Positions 11,056 to 50,530 of a stretch of 64,000 nucleotides of DNA are shown here, piece by piece; position 1 is the stretch's first letter; the number at the start of each line of letters is the position of its first letter. The translations under genes and the position numbers were made by a program. Location of the stretch: NCBI GenBank assembly GCA_036380355.1, contig DASVEW010000032.1:23-64022 (forward strand), given 5' to 3'. The notes under the pieces were generated by a model. The model had not been told where the DNA came from. It saw only the letters and a list, made by a program, of their open reading frames with translations, and did no database searches. Origin of the DNA: Gaiellaceae bacterium (GTDB lineage Bacteria > Actinomycetota > Thermoleophilia > Gaiellales > Gaiellaceae).

Positions 11056-12635
11056 TGCGGTTTCGCAGAGGAATGAAGGGGTTTAGGGAAACCGCCGTCT
11101 TGACGGCCTGCATCTGCGGGCTGCTTGCGCTGGCCGCGCCGGCTGCGGCGGACGTCAGCGTCGGGGTGGCCGACGACCGCGGCAAGCTTGCGCCGGACGG
11201 CGGCGCCGCGTTCCTCGCCGCCATGCGGGACGTCGGGCTGACCGAGAACAGGATCACGCTTGCCTGGGACCCCGACCATCCAACGACCATCCGCGAGAAG
11301 GACTCGCTCGACCGCTACATCGCGAACGCAACGGCAGCGGGCGTCCGCATCTCGATGGTGATCGCGCCCAGCCGTGCGCGTGCGCTCTTTCGCTCCACCT
11401 CGGCGACCGGCCAGTACATCGCGTTCCTCGCCCAGGTCGCCCGGACCTACCCGCAAGTGAGGGACATCGCCGTCGGCAACGAGCCGAACCAGCCCCGGTT
11501 CTGGCAGCCCCAGTTCAGCACCCGCGGCGCCGGCCTCGCGTGCACCTCGTACGCCCGCGTCCTGGCGCAGGCCTACGACGCGCTCAAGGCGGTCAACACC
11601 TCGATCACCGTCCTCGGCGTCTCGCTCTCCCCGCGCGGGAACGACAACGCCCTCGCGGCCACGAACGCCTCGACCTCGCCGGTCCGCTGCATCCGCGACA
11701 TGGGCGCCGCCTACCGCGCCGGCCGCCGCAAGCGGCCGATCATGGACGAGCTCGCCTTCCATCCGCATCCGAACTCGAACACCGACACCTTCCTCGTCGG
11801 CTACCGCTGGCCGAACGCCGGCACGCCGAACCTCGGGCGGATCAGGCAGGCCGTTTGGGATGCCTTCCGCGGCACCGCCCAGCCGGTCTTCGCCGAGGCC
11901 GGGCGGCCCGTGTCGCGCGCGGCGCGGCCGCCGCTCCGGTTCCGCCTCAACGAGATCGGCTGGCAGACGTCGATCCCGGCCTCCTCGATGCACGCGTACT
12001 ACGGGCGCGAGTCGGTCCCGCGCCTGGCGGAAGACCGCCACCAGTCCGACGTCTACTCGGCCCTGATCCCGTACTACGCGTGTGACCAGTCCGTGAGCTC
12101 GATGCTCTACTACGGCCTCGTCGACGAGCCCGACCTCGAACGCTGGCAGGCCGGCCTGCTCCGCGCCGACTGGAGCCGCAGGCCGTCGTACAACACCGTG
12201 AAGTCGATGATCGCCCGCGGTCGCACCAAGTGCGCCCGCCGCGCGGTCCGTTGGCGTCACTCGACCGTCGTGGTCGGCGCGACCGCGAAGTTCGGCGAGC
12301 GACGCCGGTCGGCCGGCGACACGAACTGGACGTTCGTCTCGAGCTCCGAGGAGGCGAGCACGTTCACGGGCGCGATGTACCGCCTGAAGAGCCGCAGGCT
12401 GGGCGCGAAGGCGCGGAAGCGCCTTCTGGCCGCGGTCGGTGTGAGGAGGGCTCCGAAGCCCGTTCTCACCGCCCGCGGCAAGGTCCGCGCACACCAGGGG
12501 GCGTTCGTCCGCTTCAAGCGGAAGCGCCTCAGGCCGGGCCACTACGTGTTCGCGGTCCGGCTCCGGGCCGAGATGAACCCCACCCGGACGACGGCGTTCG
12601 TCTCGCGGCCCTTCGCAGTCGGAACGCGTAGGTAG
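11055..12635 (+). CDS. secreted TIM-barrel glycoside-hydrolase-like protein (clan GH-A features)
   Basis: Signal peptide (LALAAPAAADV). VGNEPN (acid/base-type NEP) and LNEIGWQ (nucleophile-type) motifs. C-terminal Ig-like tail. Family not resolved. Confidence 0.6.
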   Translation: MRFRRGMKGFRETAVLTACICGLLALAAPAAADVSVGVADDRGKLAPDGGAAFLAAMRDVGLTENRITLAWDPDHPTTIREKDSLDRYIANATAAGVRISMVIAPSRARALFRSTSATGQYIAFLAQVARTYPQVRDIAVGNEPNQPRFWQPQFSTRGAGLACTSYARVLAQAYDALKAVNTSITVLGVSLSPRGNDNALAATNASTSPVRCIRDMGAAYRAGRRKRPIMDELAFHPHPNSNTDTFLVGYRWPNAGTPNLGRIRQAVWDAFRGTAQPVFAEAGRPVSRAARPPLRFRLNEIGWQTSIPASSMHAYYGRESVPRLAEDRHQSDVYSALIPYYACDQSVSSMLYYGLVDEPDLERWQAGLLRADWSRRPSYNTVKSMIARGRTKCARRAVRWRHSTVVVGATAKFGERRRSAGDTNWTFVSSSEEASTFTGAMYRLKSRRLGAKARKRLLAAVGVRRAPKPVLTARGKVRAHQGAFVRFKRKRLRPGHYVFAVRLRAEMNPTRTTAFVSRPFAVGTRR

Positions 12636-12796
12636 TGCCCCACCAGGCAATCCACGCCGGTTTCTGGCCCGCGATCACGCTGCGCCAGAGCCGACCCTCC
12701 TCCTCACCAAGGCTGTCCAGCCTTGGCTCGTCGGACGGCGCGCTCTGGCTTGGTGCTCGCGACCCAGAAAAGGGGCAGGATCACCTGGAGGGGCAC
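12635..12796 (+). repeat. 162-bp imperfect-palindrome intercistronic element, copy 1
   Basis: About 89% identical over its full length to 29633..29794 (18 mismatches, hand alignment). Folds into one long hairpin with conserved apical stem CCAAGGCT/AGCCTTGG. Confidence 0.85.
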
Positions 12797-12798
12797 TA

Positions 12799-13926
12799 GT
12801 GCGCGACCCGCGGCTCGAGAAGCTCGCCGAGCTGATCGCCGGCTACTCGCTCGACCTCCGCGAGGGGCAGGTCTACCGGATCGACGGCGAGGAGGTCTCG
12901 ACGCCGCTGGCCGTCGCGCTGTACGCCGCGGCCCTCCGCCGCGGCGCCCACCCGTACACGCGGATCGTCCCGGCGGGGCTCGACGAGATCGAGCTCGAGG
13001 CGGCCTCGGACGAGCAGCTGACCTACATCCCGGAGGTCGAGCGGATCGCGACCGAGGAGCTGGACGCCTGGACGTCCCTCTGGGGAACCGTCAACACCCG
13101 TGCGCTCACACGCGCGGACACCGAGCGGCGCCGCCTGCAGCTCTCGACGCACTACCGGATGGTCAACCGGCGCTGGGAGCGGATCAGCGCGGGCGAGCTC
13201 GCGTGGTGCGGCACCCTTTACCCGAGCCAGGCGCACGCGCAGGACGCCGAGATGTCCCTGGCCGAGTTCGAGGACTTCGTCCACGGCGCCTGCCACACGC
13301 GCGAGGGCGACGACCCGATCGCGCACTGGCAGAGCATGTCGCAGACGCTCACGGCGCGGGCGCGGGAGCTCGAGGGCGTGCGCGAGCTCCGCATCGTCGG
13401 CCCCGACACCGACCTCAGGGTGGTCGTCGAGGGCCGCCGGTGGTTGCCCTCGGACGGCAAGGACAACATGCCCGACGGCGAGGTCTTCACGAGCCCGGTC
13501 GAGACCGGGACGAACGGCGAGATCTACTTCGCCTTCCCGTCGGTCTTCCAGGGCCAGGAGGTGGAGAACGTCCGCCTGCGGTTCGAGGACGGGCGGGTCG
13601 TGCACGCCGAAGCGAGCTCGGGCGAGGAGTACCTGCGCTCGCTCCTCGACACCGATCAGGGGGCGAGCGTGCTCGGCGAGGTCGCGTTCGGGCTCAATTA
13701 CGAGATCGACCGCTTCACCCGCGACATCCTCTTCGACGAGAAGATCGGCGGGACGATGCACGTCGCGCTCGGCGGCGGCTTCGACGAGGCGGGAACCGAG
13801 AACAAGTCCGACCTGCACTGGGATCTCATCTGCGACCTCCGCGAGGAGGGCGAGGTGTACGCCGACGGGCAGCTCGTCTGGAAGACGGGCTCGTTCCTCG
13901 CCGAGCCGGCGGTCGAACGTGTCTGA
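12799..13926 (+). CDS. M29-family aminopeptidase (AmpS/PepS-like), paralog 1
   Basis: 375 aa. LAELIAGYSLDL at the N-terminus, NMPDGEVFTSP, and GGTMHVALG...LHWDLI at the C-terminus are typical of thermophilic-metalloprotease M29. Confidence 0.85.
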   Translation: MRDPRLEKLAELIAGYSLDLREGQVYRIDGEEVSTPLAVALYAAALRRGAHPYTRIVPAGLDEIELEAASDEQLTYIPEVERIATEELDAWTSLWGTVNTRALTRADTERRRLQLSTHYRMVNRRWERISAGELAWCGTLYPSQAHAQDAEMSLAEFEDFVHGACHTREGDDPIAHWQSMSQTLTARARELEGVRELRIVGPDTDLRVVVEGRRWLPSDGKDNMPDGEVFTSPVETGTNGEIYFAFPSVFQGQEVENVRLRFEDGRVVHAEASSGEEYLRSLLDTDQGASVLGEVAFGLNYEIDRFTRDILFDEKIGGTMHVALGGGFDEAGTENKSDLHWDLICDLREEGEVYADGQLVWKTGSFLAEPAVERV

Positions 13927-27502: not shown

Positions 27503-28678
27503 GTGGCGCGCGTCCTGGTCGGTGTCACCGGGGGGATCGCCGCTTACAAGGCGTGCGAGCTGGTGCGTCTGTTCGTCAAGGGCGGCCACGAGGTCGTCCC
27601 GCTCGTGACGCCCGGCGCCGACCGCTTCGTGCGGGCCGAGACCTTCCACGCGCTCGCGCGGCGGGCGCCCGATGCGGCGTACCCGCACCTCGAGCGCGCG
27701 GATCTCTACCTGATCGCGCCGCTCACGGCCAACACGCTCGCGCAGCTCGCCCACGGGCTCGCCGACAACGTCGTCTCCGAGGCGGCGCTCGCACACGACG
27801 GGCCGCTGCTTGTGGCGCCCGCGATGAACGTGCGGATGTGGAACCACCCGGCGACGCAGGCCAACGTCGAGACGCTCAGAAGACGCGGCGTGGAGATCGT
27901 CGGGCCCGAGGAGGGCGACCTCGCCGAGGGCGAGGAAGGCGTCGGCCGGATGGCGGAGCCCGTGGACATCTTCGCGCGCGCCGAGCAGCTTCTCGGGGCA
28001 AGTAACAGTCTGTTACTTGGAAAGACGGTGGTCGTTGCGGCCGGTGGCACGCGGGAGCCGATCGACGCGGTGCGCTACGTCGGCAACCGCTCCTCCGGGC
28101 GGATGGGCGCTGCGGTGGCCGAAGAAGCTCGCCGCCGCGGAGCCCGGGTGACGCTGATCGCGTCGAATCTGGGCGTCGATCCTCCCACCGGCGTCCAGGT
28201 CGTGCAGGCCCCGACCGCGGCCGACCTGGCCCGGGAGACTGTGGCCCGGGGAGACGCGGACGTCGTGGTCATGGCCGCGGCCGTCTCCGACTACCGGCCT
28301 GCGGACCCTCGCGCCGACAAGCGCCCGAAGGACGAGGCGCCCTGGCAGCTCGAGCTCGAACCGACCGACGACGTGCTGCGGACGCTCGGCGCGCAGTCGA
28401 CGAACGGCCGGATCCTGGTCGGCTTCGCCGCGGAGACCGGGGAGGACGGTCTCGCCCGCGCCAGGGCGAAGCGGACCGGCAAGAATGCAGATCTCGTCGT
28501 CTACAACGATGTGGGCAGGTCGGACGTGGGGTTCGAGTCGGCCGACAACGAGGTCGTACTGATTTCCGAGGCAGGGGAGCGGAGGGTGAGCAAGGCGCCG
28601 AAGAGCCGGATCGCAGCCGAGATCTGGGACGAGGTCGAGCGGCTGCTAGGGGAGAACGGTGGCCGAGCGGAGGGCTGA
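27503..28678 (+). CDS. coaBC: bifunctional phosphopantothenoylcysteine decarboxylase / phosphopantothenate-cysteine ligase
   Basis: GVTGGIAAYK (flavoprotein domain), PAMN, then AGGTREPIDAVRYVGNRSSG (CoaB domain). Confidence 0.9.
   Translation: MARVLVGVTGGIAAYKACELVRLFVKGGHEVVPLVTPGADRFVRAETFHALARRAPDAAYPHLERADLYLIAPLTANTLAQLAHGLADNVVSEAALAHDGPLLVAPAMNVRMWNHPATQANVETLRRRGVEIVGPEEGDLAEGEEGVGRMAEPVDIFARAEQLLGASNSLLLGKTVVVAAGGTREPIDAVRYVGNRSSGRMGAAVAEEARRRGARVTLIASNLGVDPPTGVQVVQAPTAADLARETVARGDADVVVMAAAVSDYRPADPRADKRPKDEAPWQLELEPTDDVLRTLGAQSTNGRILVGFAAETGEDGLARARAKRTGKNADLVVYNDVGRSDVGFESADNEVVLISEAGERRVSKAPKSRIAAEIWDEVERLLGENGGRAEG
27999..28019. repeat. perfect 21-bp AT-rich palindrome CAAGTAACAG-T-CTGTTACTTG inside the coaBC interdomain linker
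   Basis: Read directly. Same motif family as 49760..49780 and 49816..49836. Confidence 0.8.
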
Positions 28679-48866: not shown

Positions 48867-49254
48867 GCTCGCCCGCGGAAAGCAGCGCTGCTACCTCGTC
48901 TACGCCGTCGCGCCGGACGGTGTGACGGCCAGGCAGGCCAACGAGCTCCTGAACGAGTACGTCGAGGACCGCCGACGCGGCTTCGTCATCTTCCACGACC
49001 ACTTCACGGGCAAGCCGCACGGCGGCATCGCCGTCTTCGACGTCCGCGACGAGGAGGCGTTCGGACTGCTGGAGGACCCGGGGCCGCTCGCCGGCTGGGA
49101 TCTCCGGGTGCATTCGTTCACCTTCTCACTCGCCGCGACCGGGTTCGCTGCCCAGATGGCGCTCACGGCCGAGGCCTACGGCGGCAAGAAGCTCGAGGAG
49201 CTGCGTGCGGAGGAGGCGGAGGACGAGCGCTTCTGGTGGCTCCGGCGTGATTGA
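48859..49254 (+). CDS. hypothetical protein
   Basis: In-frame TTG 48859 overlaps the dapB end. About 131 aa. No family recognised. The stop overlaps the next gene's start (GTGATTGA). Confidence 0.45.
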   Translation: MTELARGKQRCYLVYAVAPDGVTARQANELLNEYVEDRRRGFVIFHDHFTGKPHGGIAVFDVRDEEAFGLLEDPGPLAGWDLRVHSFTFSLAATGFAAQMALTAEAYGGKKLEELRAEEAEDERFWWLRRD

Positions 49255-49762
49255 GCTGTCCGTCATGGAGGGGGACATCACGACGCTCGAGGTCGACGCG
49301 ATCGCCAACGCGGCGAACGACGCGCTCTGGATGGGAGCCGGCGTCGCCGGCGCCATCAAGCGGGCCGGGGGAGAGGAGATCGAGCGCGAGGCGGTCGCCA
49401 AGGGGCCGATCGAGATCGGCGAGGCGGTCGCCACGGGCGCCGGGCGACTGGCTGCGAAGTGGGTCGTCCACGGTGCGGTGATGGGACAGGATCTCCGCAC
49501 CGACGCGGACCTCGTCCGCCGGACGACGGAGAGCTGCCTCCGCGTCGCGGACGAGCTCGGCGCCGAATCCGTGGCCCTACCGGCGTTCGGCACCGGCGTC
49601 GGCGGGTTCCCGCTCGACGAGTGCGCCCGGATCATGGTCGAGGCAGCGCGCGCCCACCGTCCGGCGTCGCTGAAACGGGTCGTCTTCGCCGTCTTCGGCG
49701 CCGAGCCGAAGCGCGCCTTCGATCGGGCGCTGGCGGGAGCGCCAGGCGAGCCCGGAGAGTAA
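49247..49762 (+). CDS. macro-domain protein (ADP-ribose/O-acetyl-ADP-ribose hydrolase type)
   Basis: Contains GDITTLEVDAIANAAN, GAGVAGAI and PAFGTGVGGFP. Confidence 0.85.
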   Translation: MIELSVMEGDITTLEVDAIANAANDALWMGAGVAGAIKRAGGEEIEREAVAKGPIEIGEAVATGAGRLAAKWVVHGAVMGQDLRTDADLVRRTTESCLRVADELGAESVALPAFGTGVGGFPLDECARIMVEAARAHRPASLKRVVFAVFGAEPKRAFDRALAGAPGEPGE

Positions 49763-49780
49763 GCAACACTGTGTTACTTA
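49760..49780. promoter_or_regulatory. 21-bp palindromic operator-like site TAAGCAACAC-T-GTGTTACTTA
   Basis: Read directly, one mismatch from a perfect palindrome. Overlaps the TAA stop of the macro-domain gene. Confidence 0.55.
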
Positions 49781-49815
49781 CCGCCCGAGGCCGCGGCTGG
49801 ACGGCGATTCCCGGC

Positions 49816-49836
49816 CTTGTAACACAGTGTTACTTG
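49816..49836. promoter_or_regulatory. 21-bp palindromic operator-like site CTTGTAACAC-A-GTGTTACTTG overlapping the predicted -35 of the MerB-like gene
   Basis: The core GTAACAC-A-GTGTTAC is a perfect palindrome. A -10-like TAAGGT (49855-60) lies 6 nt before GTG 49867, which suggests a leaderless transcript. Confidence 0.55.
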
Positions 49837-49866
49837 GCCTTCGGGCGCCCTGGGTAAGGTCGCACC

Positions 49867-50530
49867 GTGGAGCTCGACAACCGCGTCCGCCTCGCGCTCT
49901 ACAAGCGCTTCGTCGAGGACGGCGAGCCGCCGACCGCCGCCGACGTGGCAGCCGAGCTCGGGATCCCGGCCGGGGACGCCGAGGCGGCCTACCAGCGGCT
50001 GCACGAGGCGCACGTGATCGTCCTCATGCCGGGCACGAAGCAGGTGTGGATGGCGAACCCGCTCTCCGCGGTCCCGACCGCCTTCCGGGTGGAGACGCCG
50101 GGCGGCTACCACTACGGGAACTGCATCTGGGACGGTCTCGGAGTCGTCTCGATGCTGGGCGGCGACGGGACCGTCGAGACGCGCTGCCCGGATTGCGAGG
50201 AGCCGATGACGCTCCGGGTCGAGCACGGCGGGCTCCTCGACGGCGACGGGCTCGCGCACTTCGTGGTCCCGGCGGCCCGCTGGTGGGACAACGTCGGCTT
50301 CACCTGAGCGACGATGCTCGCCTTCCGGTCGGAAGCGCACGTCGACCGCTGGTGTGAGCAAACGGGCCTCGAGCGCGGCGCGGCCTTCCCGCTCGAGACG
50401 GCCTGGCGGCTCGCCGACGCCCTGGTACCGCGACCGCCTGAGCCCGGACTGGCGGCGCCGCACCCCAGCGGAGGCCGAGACGGTCTTCCGGGACCTCGGC
50501 CTGACCGGAGCGTTCTGGAAGCTGGCGTGA
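49867..50530 (+). CDS. MerB-like (alkylmercury lyase family) protein with N-terminal wHTH. Contains an in-frame TGA (50305-07, possible Sec) and a 1-nt frameshift near 50420
   Basis: 49867..50307 and 50314.. are in one frame. GNCIWD matches MerB's Cys96/Asp99 motif. The TGA aligns with the second catalytic Cys. A family-typical C-terminus (WYRDRLSPDWRRRTPAEAETVFRDLGLTGAFWKLA) runs in the next frame from 50423 to stop 50528-30. Confidence 0.65.
50319..50337 (+). other. SECIS-like hairpin downstream of the in-frame TGA
   Basis: CG / bulged C / CUUCC - GGUC - GGAAG / CG. The bulge is 17 nt and the loop 23-26 nt from the U of UGA. Confidence 0.55.

Follow-up and report, generated by a model that had tools for sequence, protein, structure and literature searches.

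Palindromic repeats resembling the REP/REPIN type in Gaiellaceae and the small helix-turn-helix protein that probably partners them

In a 64,000-nucleotide stretch of DNA from a Gaiellaceae bacterium (the window; positions 23 to 64,022 of contig DASVEW010000032.1, assembly GCA_036380355.1), two AT-rich 21-bp palindromes separate a macro-domain gene from a MerB-like gene. Here, we describe the family to which these palindromes belong, its distribution across the Gaiellaceae, the insertion/deletion polymorphism of its copies, their association with a small gene and the covariation between that gene and the sites. We estimate a probability of about 0.6 that the family is a repeat system similar to repetitive extragenic palindromes (REP) and their hairpin-forming doublets (REPIN), which is partnered by a small DNA-binding protein and not by a REP-associated tyrosine transposase (RAYT).

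The genome that contains the window (G000; 2,065,348 bp in 116 contigs, 70.6% GC, 82% complete) carries 19 exact copies of GTAACA-N3-TGTTAC, as well as five copies with one mismatch and two copies with two, against 0.007 expected from composition. The reversed pattern served as a control and had no match in any genome searched. When 24 sites of this genome were stacked with 130 sites from relatives, the 21-bp consensus CWAGTAACA-NNN-TGTTACTWG was obtained. Conservation essentially ends at the edges of these 21 bp, flanks and spacers are unconserved, and about 150 sites have the identical 18 bases. Within the window, GTAACACNGTGTTAC matches three times at up to three mismatches, whereas 0.13 matches are expected and none of 100 shuffles reached three. 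The original prediction, which had been made from the letters of the window, held that such sites are very unlikely to arise by chance, and both the genome count and the shuffles bear this out. A relation to a 162-bp miniature inverted-repeat transposable element (MITE) of the window was considered and rejected, as the interval 12600-12830 lacks the GTAACA/TGTTAC motif. A literature search found no paper that links the motif or Gaiella to such repeats.

A small open reading frame (ORF) came to light through sites that recur in pairs about 380 bp apart. At 33 of 34 loci, from 27 genomes, this gene is flanked on both sides by the palindrome; the remaining locus (L015) is without the downstream copy. 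The upstream copy ends 50-63 bp before the start of the gene, where the full N-terminus could be aligned, and the start of the downstream copy falls at -4 to +46 bp relative to the stop codon. The gene is present in 27 of the 39 genomes of the genus, in 1-4 copies per genome, and in four genomes it is syntenic, lying between an oxidoreductase gene and a short-chain dehydrogenase/reductase (SDR) gene. The upstream palindrome is directly followed by a conserved TTGGCAC-N6-GGCAC or TTGACAC (for example at L011:1448-1500, L017 and L015; G, C and L numbers are our handles for genomes, contigs and loci), and a CAYASTnnnnnnn box lies 6-8 nt before the start codon. The arrangement suggests that the mRNA of the small gene may be leaderless, as may be that of the MerB-like gene described below.

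The small gene encodes a protein of about 97 amino acids with the core …PIAE..RRVG..A..LGL.RPSYERVR.LVH..RR…. The protein matched no Pfam, PHROG or NCBIfam family and no sequence relative in the PDB, and a VapB antitoxin model that hit at E 0.04-0.07 was dismissed as noise. Its 302 close homologues are all hypothetical proteins from Gaiellaceae or soil metagenomes. An exhaustive search yielded 399 cluster representatives at 50% identity, of which the best 150 are all small. No fused form was found among the homologues; four longer proteins have no recorded Pfam domains and are probably mis-called ORFs. Moreover, the protein has no match to a Pfam transposase helix-turn-helix (HTH) domain, even at an E of 1. 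An AlphaFold2 model (pLDDT 76) consists of five helices, and its first 63 residues match homeodomains as well as the transposon-end-binding domains of TnsB, MuA and Tc3, with Z scores of 5-7.6. The best VIA-align match is the DNA-binding domain of TnsB (Z 7.6 over 63 residues, root-mean-square deviation 3.1), which is below the level that the tool takes as decisive for helical proteins, and many homeodomains match with Z scores of 5-6.6. In Foldseek, E is about 1. The matches suggest, though not decisively, a sequence-specific HTH protein, probably with a three-helix, homeodomain-like fold.

The protein and its sites vary together. In a FastTree phylogeny of the small protein, the clades match the centre triplets of the flanking palindromes, which are A-type (ACT/AGT), C-type (CAG/CTG) or G-type (GAC/GTC). 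At residue 48, which opens helix 3 directly after the nearly invariant Tyr47, 12 of 13 C-type proteins have Gln, whereas every A-type (15) and G-type (6) protein has Glu. The sites elsewhere in the genomes follow the gene type as well: each of the 15 genomes with an A-type gene has at least three A-type sites, whereas such sites are missing from 8 of the 11 genomes in which all the small genes are of other types. The C-type sites track the C-type gene in the same way. Exceptions to the tracking of sites and gene types are G016, G022 and G041. More distant homologues (40-55% identity, from other metagenome-assembled genomes of Thermoleophilia) are flanked by symmetric variants of the palindrome, namely GTTACA..TGTAAC, GTGACA..TGTCAC or forms with other centres. 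In the clades, in residue 48 and in the half-site variants, the sites covary with the protein in the way that operators covary with their transcription factor.

The copies favour the ends of genes. Gene calls for this analysis were conservative and based on GC content at third codon positions, so that some genes were missed; by these calls, 21 of the 26 sites of G000 are intergenic. Eleven of the 21 lie between convergent genes, ten between tandem genes and none between divergent genes, whereas about 4, 14 and 3 would be expected from intergenic length. The centre of the site is at most 15 bp from a gene 3' end in 10 of the 21 cases and at most 64 bp in 15, and at many sites the stop codon is the TAA inside GTAACA or a TAG just upstream. 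This is dispersal of the REP type, with over-represented palindromes that are mainly extragenic. The five genic sites comprise four exact or near-exact copies in frame, in the linker of coaBC, in queA, in a UDP-GlcNAc 2-epimerase (wecB-type) gene and in the gene of an 1100-aa DnaE-type polymerase, and a fifth within the final codons of the gene for a biotin carboxylase, 17 bp upstream of nusB. Clustering of sites of the macrodomain type was not seen in three genomes with long contigs, in which the sites are spread.

The original prediction had proposed a genome scan for the genes that follow the motif, and the answer is that the sites lie mainly at gene 3' ends, in convergent spacers and in coding sequence, with no common theme in their neighbours. 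These include genes for a beta-lactamase-like protein, a HAD hydrolase, a thiolase, an aminotransferase, isocitrate/isopropylmalate dehydrogenase, HD-domain proteins, LigD, SerA, an acyl-CoA dehydrogenase, Tad pilus proteins and COX2. The unrelated neighbours and the placement at 3' ends argue against a promoter regulon, and a concentration of sites in promoter or 5' regions, as for the operators of a regulon, was not found in G000. Such a position is taken by the upstream copy at the small HTH gene in relatives and possibly by the second site at the MerB-like gene. As a side observation, sites touch both loci of nonhomologous end joining (NHEJ) in G000, namely full-length LigD and the Prim-Pol/ligase pair (G000:C63:4890 and G000:C86:11294-11364); further sites lie in frame in the DnaE-type polymerase gene (G000:C45:39447) and after the macro-domain gene of the window (49760-49836). 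This may be a DNA-repair theme or a coincidence.

Many copies occur as doublets. Twelve of the 26 sites of G000 form six pairs, five of which are spaced 54-57 bp and one 75 bp. Among 64 doublets gathered from the site listings of G000 and its relatives, 37 are spaced 53-57 bp (mode 56), 5 are spaced 63-68 bp (mode 67-68), 21 are spaced 75-79 bp (mode 78) and one is spaced 159 bp. The spacing classes differ by about 11 bp, which is one helical turn. The DNA between the sites is GC-rich and unrelated from pair to pair in the 26 doublets compared. Because the spacing moves in steps of about 11 bp and its length is constrained but its sequence is not, we favour proteins phased on double-stranded DNA. 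All six doublets of G000 can also be folded as a single long hairpin (-33 to -50 kcal/mol), as the sites of a pair are mutually complementary. Hairpin folds are thus seen as in inverted doublets of the REPIN type, but each unit is itself palindromic and about two-thirds of the centre triplets are in direct orientation (38 direct repeats versus 17 inverted and 9 mixed in a tally of the listings). A structured spacer was rejected: self-complementarity is weak, and the mean minimum free energy of folding has a z score of -0.25 relative to shuffles. The hallmarks of MITEs are missing as well, since the 26 spacers are unrelated and the junctions of filled and empty loci have no consistent duplication. 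Nearly all asymmetric hybrid centres are of the GAG/CTC form, and GTG/CAC is very rare among them (lists of G023 and G006; G000:C58, C111 and C81). Point mutation would predict the two hybrids equally, and in G023 the hybrid is the dominant type.

The family extends through the Gaiellaceae. Copies number 1-52 in 22 of the 24 genomes sampled from the genus, and none was found in 16 genomes that represent four further families of the order. With a stricter 17-bp version of the motif, copies were detected in 55 of 151 genomes of the family, representing 40 of 89 genera. These tallies include genomes flagged as unpublished (G049 in the genus; G095, G163 and G169 in the family), on which no specific claim rests.

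At the locus that gave rise to this work, the first palindrome occupies 49760-49780 and reads TAAGCAACAC-T-GTGTTACTTA, a palindrome of two 10-nt arms around a central base with one mismatched pair and one mismatch to the GTAACA core. The second occupies 49816-49836 and reads CTTGTAACAC-A-GTGTTACTTG; its 15-bp core is exact and perfectly palindromic, and its outer flanks, CTT and TTG, are non-complementary. The sites and the GC-rich spacer between them (49781-49815) have no assigned strand. With centres at 49770 and 49826, the sites are 56 bp apart, and their letters and positions agree with the original description. The first three bases of the first copy (TAA) form the stop codon of the macro-domain gene (49205-49762, forward strand; PF01661, E 4.6e-30). 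On the same strand, the MerB-like gene (49867-50307; PF03243, E 1.8e-13) is a 146-aa ORF with a GTG start and a weak N-terminal HTH_20 match (E 0.001).

A possible leaderless promoter of the MerB-like gene was located at 49833-49860 on the forward strand. It would consist of TTGGCC at 49833-49838, which overlaps the right arm of the second palindrome, a 16-nt spacer, and TAAGGT at 49855-49860; the latter is located 6 nt before GTG 49867, as had been reported. A TANNNT box is found 6-8 nt before the start of the MerB-like gene in all six genomes that carry the pair. A simple sigma-70 scan called no sigma-70-type promoter at the locus, and the described promoter therefore rests on the conserved TANNNT box. 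The part of the original prediction that placed a leaderless promoter with its -35 region across the second site is thus plausible from the conserved box, although the sigma-70 scan did not call it. No terminator-like site with a U-tract was found in 49600-50000, and an Rfam scan of 49500-50100 returned nothing relevant.

Comparison of the macro/MerB-like gene pair in 11 genomes of the genus revealed two states. In the empty state (G011, G010, G024, G023 and G047), the stop of the macro-domain gene and the start of the MerB-like gene overlap or nearly abut (…GCGCTGTGAC…GAGCTC) and no palindrome is present. In the filled state (G000 and five relatives, G054, G052, G044, G009 and G006), there is an extra segment, which in G000 spans 49733-49866 (134 bp, forward strand). 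The segment lengthens the macro-domain protein by about 10 residues, ending at the TAA of the first site, and carries the palindrome pair and a new 5' region of the MerB-like gene with TA[AG]G[GC]T 6-8 nt before the start. The centre triplets of the orthologous pairs differ, being CTG/CAG in G000; G054 and G052 both have GTC/CTC, and G009 and G006 both have CTG/CTG. In addition, the spacer of G000 is inverted relative to those of the five other filled genomes, with alignment scores of 9-17 in reverse against -4 to +1 in forward orientation; among the other five, the forward alignment wins.

Other loci also document gain and loss. At the 3' end of the LigD Prim-Pol gene, six genomes have overlapping stop codons and no repeat, G000, G010 and G024 have a pair, and G041 has a single site; several other genomes have a different palindrome (GGTGCCTGGCACC) or a gene at this position. 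The third copy in the window (27999-28019, no assigned strand, core match starting at 28002) is a perfect palindrome located in frame in the linker of coaBC. Of the genomes read, at least 14 have this copy at an identical codon position and at least 11 have it as a perfect palindrome, with the centre GTC, ACT, AGT or CTG and a peptide that changes accordingly (SNSLL, SNNLL, SNKLL or SNTVL); in the more distant G042 and G020 it is absent or half present. From the filled and empty loci, and from a coaBC copy that stays perfect while the peptide changes, we conclude on comparison of sequences that copies are gained and lost and, once present, can stay perfect at the DNA level, apparently under selection on the DNA itself.

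The spacer downstream of Prim-Pol is a hot spot for several palindromic repeat families. A different palindrome, ..CCGGTGCCTGGCACCGG.., fills this convergent spacer in at least 10 of the genus genomes read (for example at L147, L150, L155, L162, L157 and L164, from G051, G011, G054, G013, G053 and G046), whereas G000 has the GTAACA/TGTTAC pair there. In G002, G014 and G052 (L153, L169 and L170), the hot spot holds an Xre-type HTH gene that is preceded by a long inverted repeat of its own, ATGTAAAGC..CTTGACA……TGTCAAG..GCTTTACAT. Across most genus genomes read, the LigD Prim-Pol proteins share 93-95% identity, compared with 74-88% for CoaBC, a degree of conservation that is unusually strong for an NHEJ polymerase.

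We propose the following working model for the REP/REPIN-like system. Copies would accumulate where insertion is tolerated, that is, behind stop codons, in convergent spacers and in in-frame linkers. A dimer of the 97-aa protein would bind each palindrome on double-stranded DNA, and the dimers on the two sites of a doublet would interact, which would explain spacing in steps of about 11 bp. At the locus in the window, the doublet probably arrived within the 134-bp segment, parting a macro/MerB-like gene pair that formerly overlapped. As a by-product, the MerB-like gene would probably start from its own leaderless promoter beside the second site, and since this promoter would adjoin the site, a protein-occupied doublet may stop read-through or cover the -35 region. 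The conserved TANNNT box suggests that any such effect on the MerB-like gene is local and secondary. A more far-reaching version holds that this is an undescribed repeat-protein partnership analogous to REPIN-RAYT, in which a homeodomain-like 97-aa protein and its sites co-evolve in specificity, selection or gene conversion keeps the sites perfect across the family, and phased doublets behind genes act as protein-bound boundaries of transcription units; we offer it tentatively, at rather less than even odds.

Several observations weigh against a partnership of this kind. The structural matches of the small protein are below the level that would exclude a merely common helical arrangement, and the Gln/Glu covariation at residue 48 represents two or three independent changes only. 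The tracking of sites and genes is also broken in places: G016 has 11 C-type sites and only an A-type gene was found in it, G022 has 12 A-type sites with a C-type gene, and the coaBC site is the sole A-type site in G052 and in G023. A 97-aa HTH protein lacks obvious catalytic residues and therefore leaves the generation of copies unexplained. Paralogues of the small gene within one genome are about 75% identical in DNA and thus give no sign of recent transposition. One pair in G002 (C7 and C22; L024 and L025) is 99.4% identical over the whole 1.2 kb around the gene; recent transposition was rejected for it, as the identity continues through the flanks, and it is probably a duplicated or redundantly assembled region. 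Finally, the small gene was not found in the incomplete assembly of G000. A search there for the oxidoreductase gene of the syntenic locus was likewise negative, and the SDR query gave only a distant match of 38% identity. Because the syntenic locus itself was not found in the assembly, the absence of the small gene from it is uninformative.

The original prediction read the pair as a classic repression layout for a dimeric HTH protein, in which a local repressor, or the N-terminal winged helix of the MerB-like protein, would bind both sites, possibly looping the DNA, and repress a leaderless promoter. The pair is indeed symmetric, non-random and helically phased, and a dimeric protein is its most likely binder; the second site abuts a plausible -35 region, the TANNNT box is present in all filled genomes and the MerB-like protein has its weak HTH_20 match. 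Yet the genome has 24 further sites with the motif, most of which adjoin 3' ends or separate convergent genes, with unrelated genes as neighbours; five relatives carry the gene pair without palindromes, and the sigma-70 scan was negative. A homologue of the MerB-like protein was found in only 13 of 39 genus genomes, whereas the motif is present in nearly all, which excludes this protein as the general binder; G002, for instance, has 46 motif sites and no MerB-like homologue was found in it. The 97-aa protein, with its gene flanked by the palindromes, is a far stronger candidate for the binder. The neighbour of the MerB-like gene is the macro-domain gene and, as had been pointed out, no regulator gene is adjacent; the locus also does not resemble a mer operator of the MerR/ArsR type, for which such an adjacent regulator would be expected, and the motif is unrelated to the presence of a MerB-like gene across genomes. 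We consider a dedicated operator highly improbable: the pair is almost certainly functional DNA, but its role as a private operator of the MerB-like gene is not supported. A purely RNA-based role, with the palindromes as bidirectional terminators or 3'-stabilising hairpins and no dedicated protein, would fit their location at stop codons and between convergent genes, as well as the stable folds of the doublets. It would not explain the association with the small gene or the in-frame copies in coaBC, queA and the epimerase and polymerase genes, selection on structure alone would permit covarying stems where about 150 sites keep the same 18 bases, and neither a U-tract terminator nor an Rfam family was called. 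We therefore regard it as quite unlikely.

Two further explanations involve a transposase, and we judge each of them unlikely, though a little less so than a role in RNA alone. In a classical REP/REPIN system, single-strand hairpins would be recognised and copied by a Y1 transposase (RAYT or IS200-like), with the small protein as passenger or regulator. Genes with PF01797 are present in 37 of 39 genus genomes, including G000, the doublets fold into a single long hairpin, the centre triplets at one orthologous site differ between species, and the inverted spacer of G000 is as in hairpin-forming inverted repeats. However, the motif is absent within about 1.5 kb at all five Y1 loci inspected, Y1 genes also occur in genomes with 0-1 copies (G013, G020 and G008), and the stem sequence is invariant and not covarying; a hairpin also leaves the quantised spacing unexplained, and the spacers are no more structured than shuffled sequence. 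The Y1 genes, 1-5 per genome (for example G000:C54:30474-30773 and those in 36 other genus genomes), are not associated with the motif and may go with other palindromes, such as GGGGTCAGACCCC. Alternatively, the sites may belong to a DDE-type element, either as relics or in active form. Each palindrome would consist of two abutted ends (…CAAGTAACA, NNN, TGTTACTTG…) with 5'-TG…CA-3' termini and a 3-bp gap, like the junction of an insertion sequence circle; the small protein would be what is left of a lost transposase, namely its end-binding domain, and recombination would occur between the sites. The TnsB, MuA and Tc3 end-binding domains among the best structural matches would be consistent with this origin, as would direct centre triplets about twice as frequent as inverted ones, hybrid GAG/CTC centres that resemble cross-overs of G-type and C-type sites, and a G000 spacer inverted exactly between both sites. 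Against it, no fused form of the small protein was found and the few longer ones are probably mis-called ORFs, a Pfam transposase HTH match is absent, no listing contains a transposase gene or a larger element bracketed by sites, direct-repeat centres are far from universal, and the structural Z scores are indecisive.

Taken together, the REP/REPIN-like reading with a small DNA-binding partner has consequences beyond the window. REP-like repeats are usually attributed to RAYT transposases, whereas here the same habits are tied to a tiny DNA-binding protein of unknown family in an uncultured soil actinomycetotal host. If the protein binds the repeats, the question arises how a population of repeats is kept up without a dedicated transposase and whether it is of use to the host, for instance as a set of roadblocks or insulators that separate convergent genes, or in marking 3' ends. 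The A, C and G centres and the GTAACA, GTTACA and GTGACA half-sites also provide a natural series of changes in protein-site specificity. For annotation, AT-rich palindromes beside start codons in Gaiellaceae genomes should not be taken as gene-specific operators.

Among known systems, the operator of an autoregulated repressor is similar in its symmetric site of about 21 bp, with one copy just upstream of the probable promoter of the small gene, and in the position of the second site next to the possible MerB-like promoter. It differs in that most copies here lie outside promoter regions and no coherent regulon is evident. The chromosomal sites of small site-specific proteins (matS/MatP, parS/ParB and the SlmA- and Noc-binding sites) are likewise near-identical palindromes, 13-21 bp long and numbering tens in each genome. 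They are both genic and intergenic, are bound by a dimeric DNA-binding protein, and are conserved and confined to domains of the chromosome. The Gaiellaceae sites, in contrast, are scattered along long contigs and turn over from species to species. They sit close to stop codons, occur in phased doublets and flank the gene of their presumed protein.

The closest likeness is to REP/REPIN-RAYT systems (Bertels & Rainey 2011, PMC3116915; PMC3337134; bioRxiv 10.1101/2021.07.10.451892). As in those systems, short palindromes are dispersed outside genes, often as doublets that can fold into one hairpin and may count as inverted pairs. Copy number differs widely among related genomes, several types of repeat can occur per genome, each with its own copy of the gene, and the low-copy cognate gene is bracketed by repeats and, in this case, is syntenic in four relatives. 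Unlike a RAYT, the flanked gene has no PF01797 or other Pfam match: the bracketed gene encodes a 97-aa all-helical HTH protein and not an HUH/Y1 transposase. The repeats also differ from REP/REPIN sequences in that their copies are few (0-52), an exact sequence is kept instead of a conserved hairpin, and the doublets are spaced by turns of the helix.

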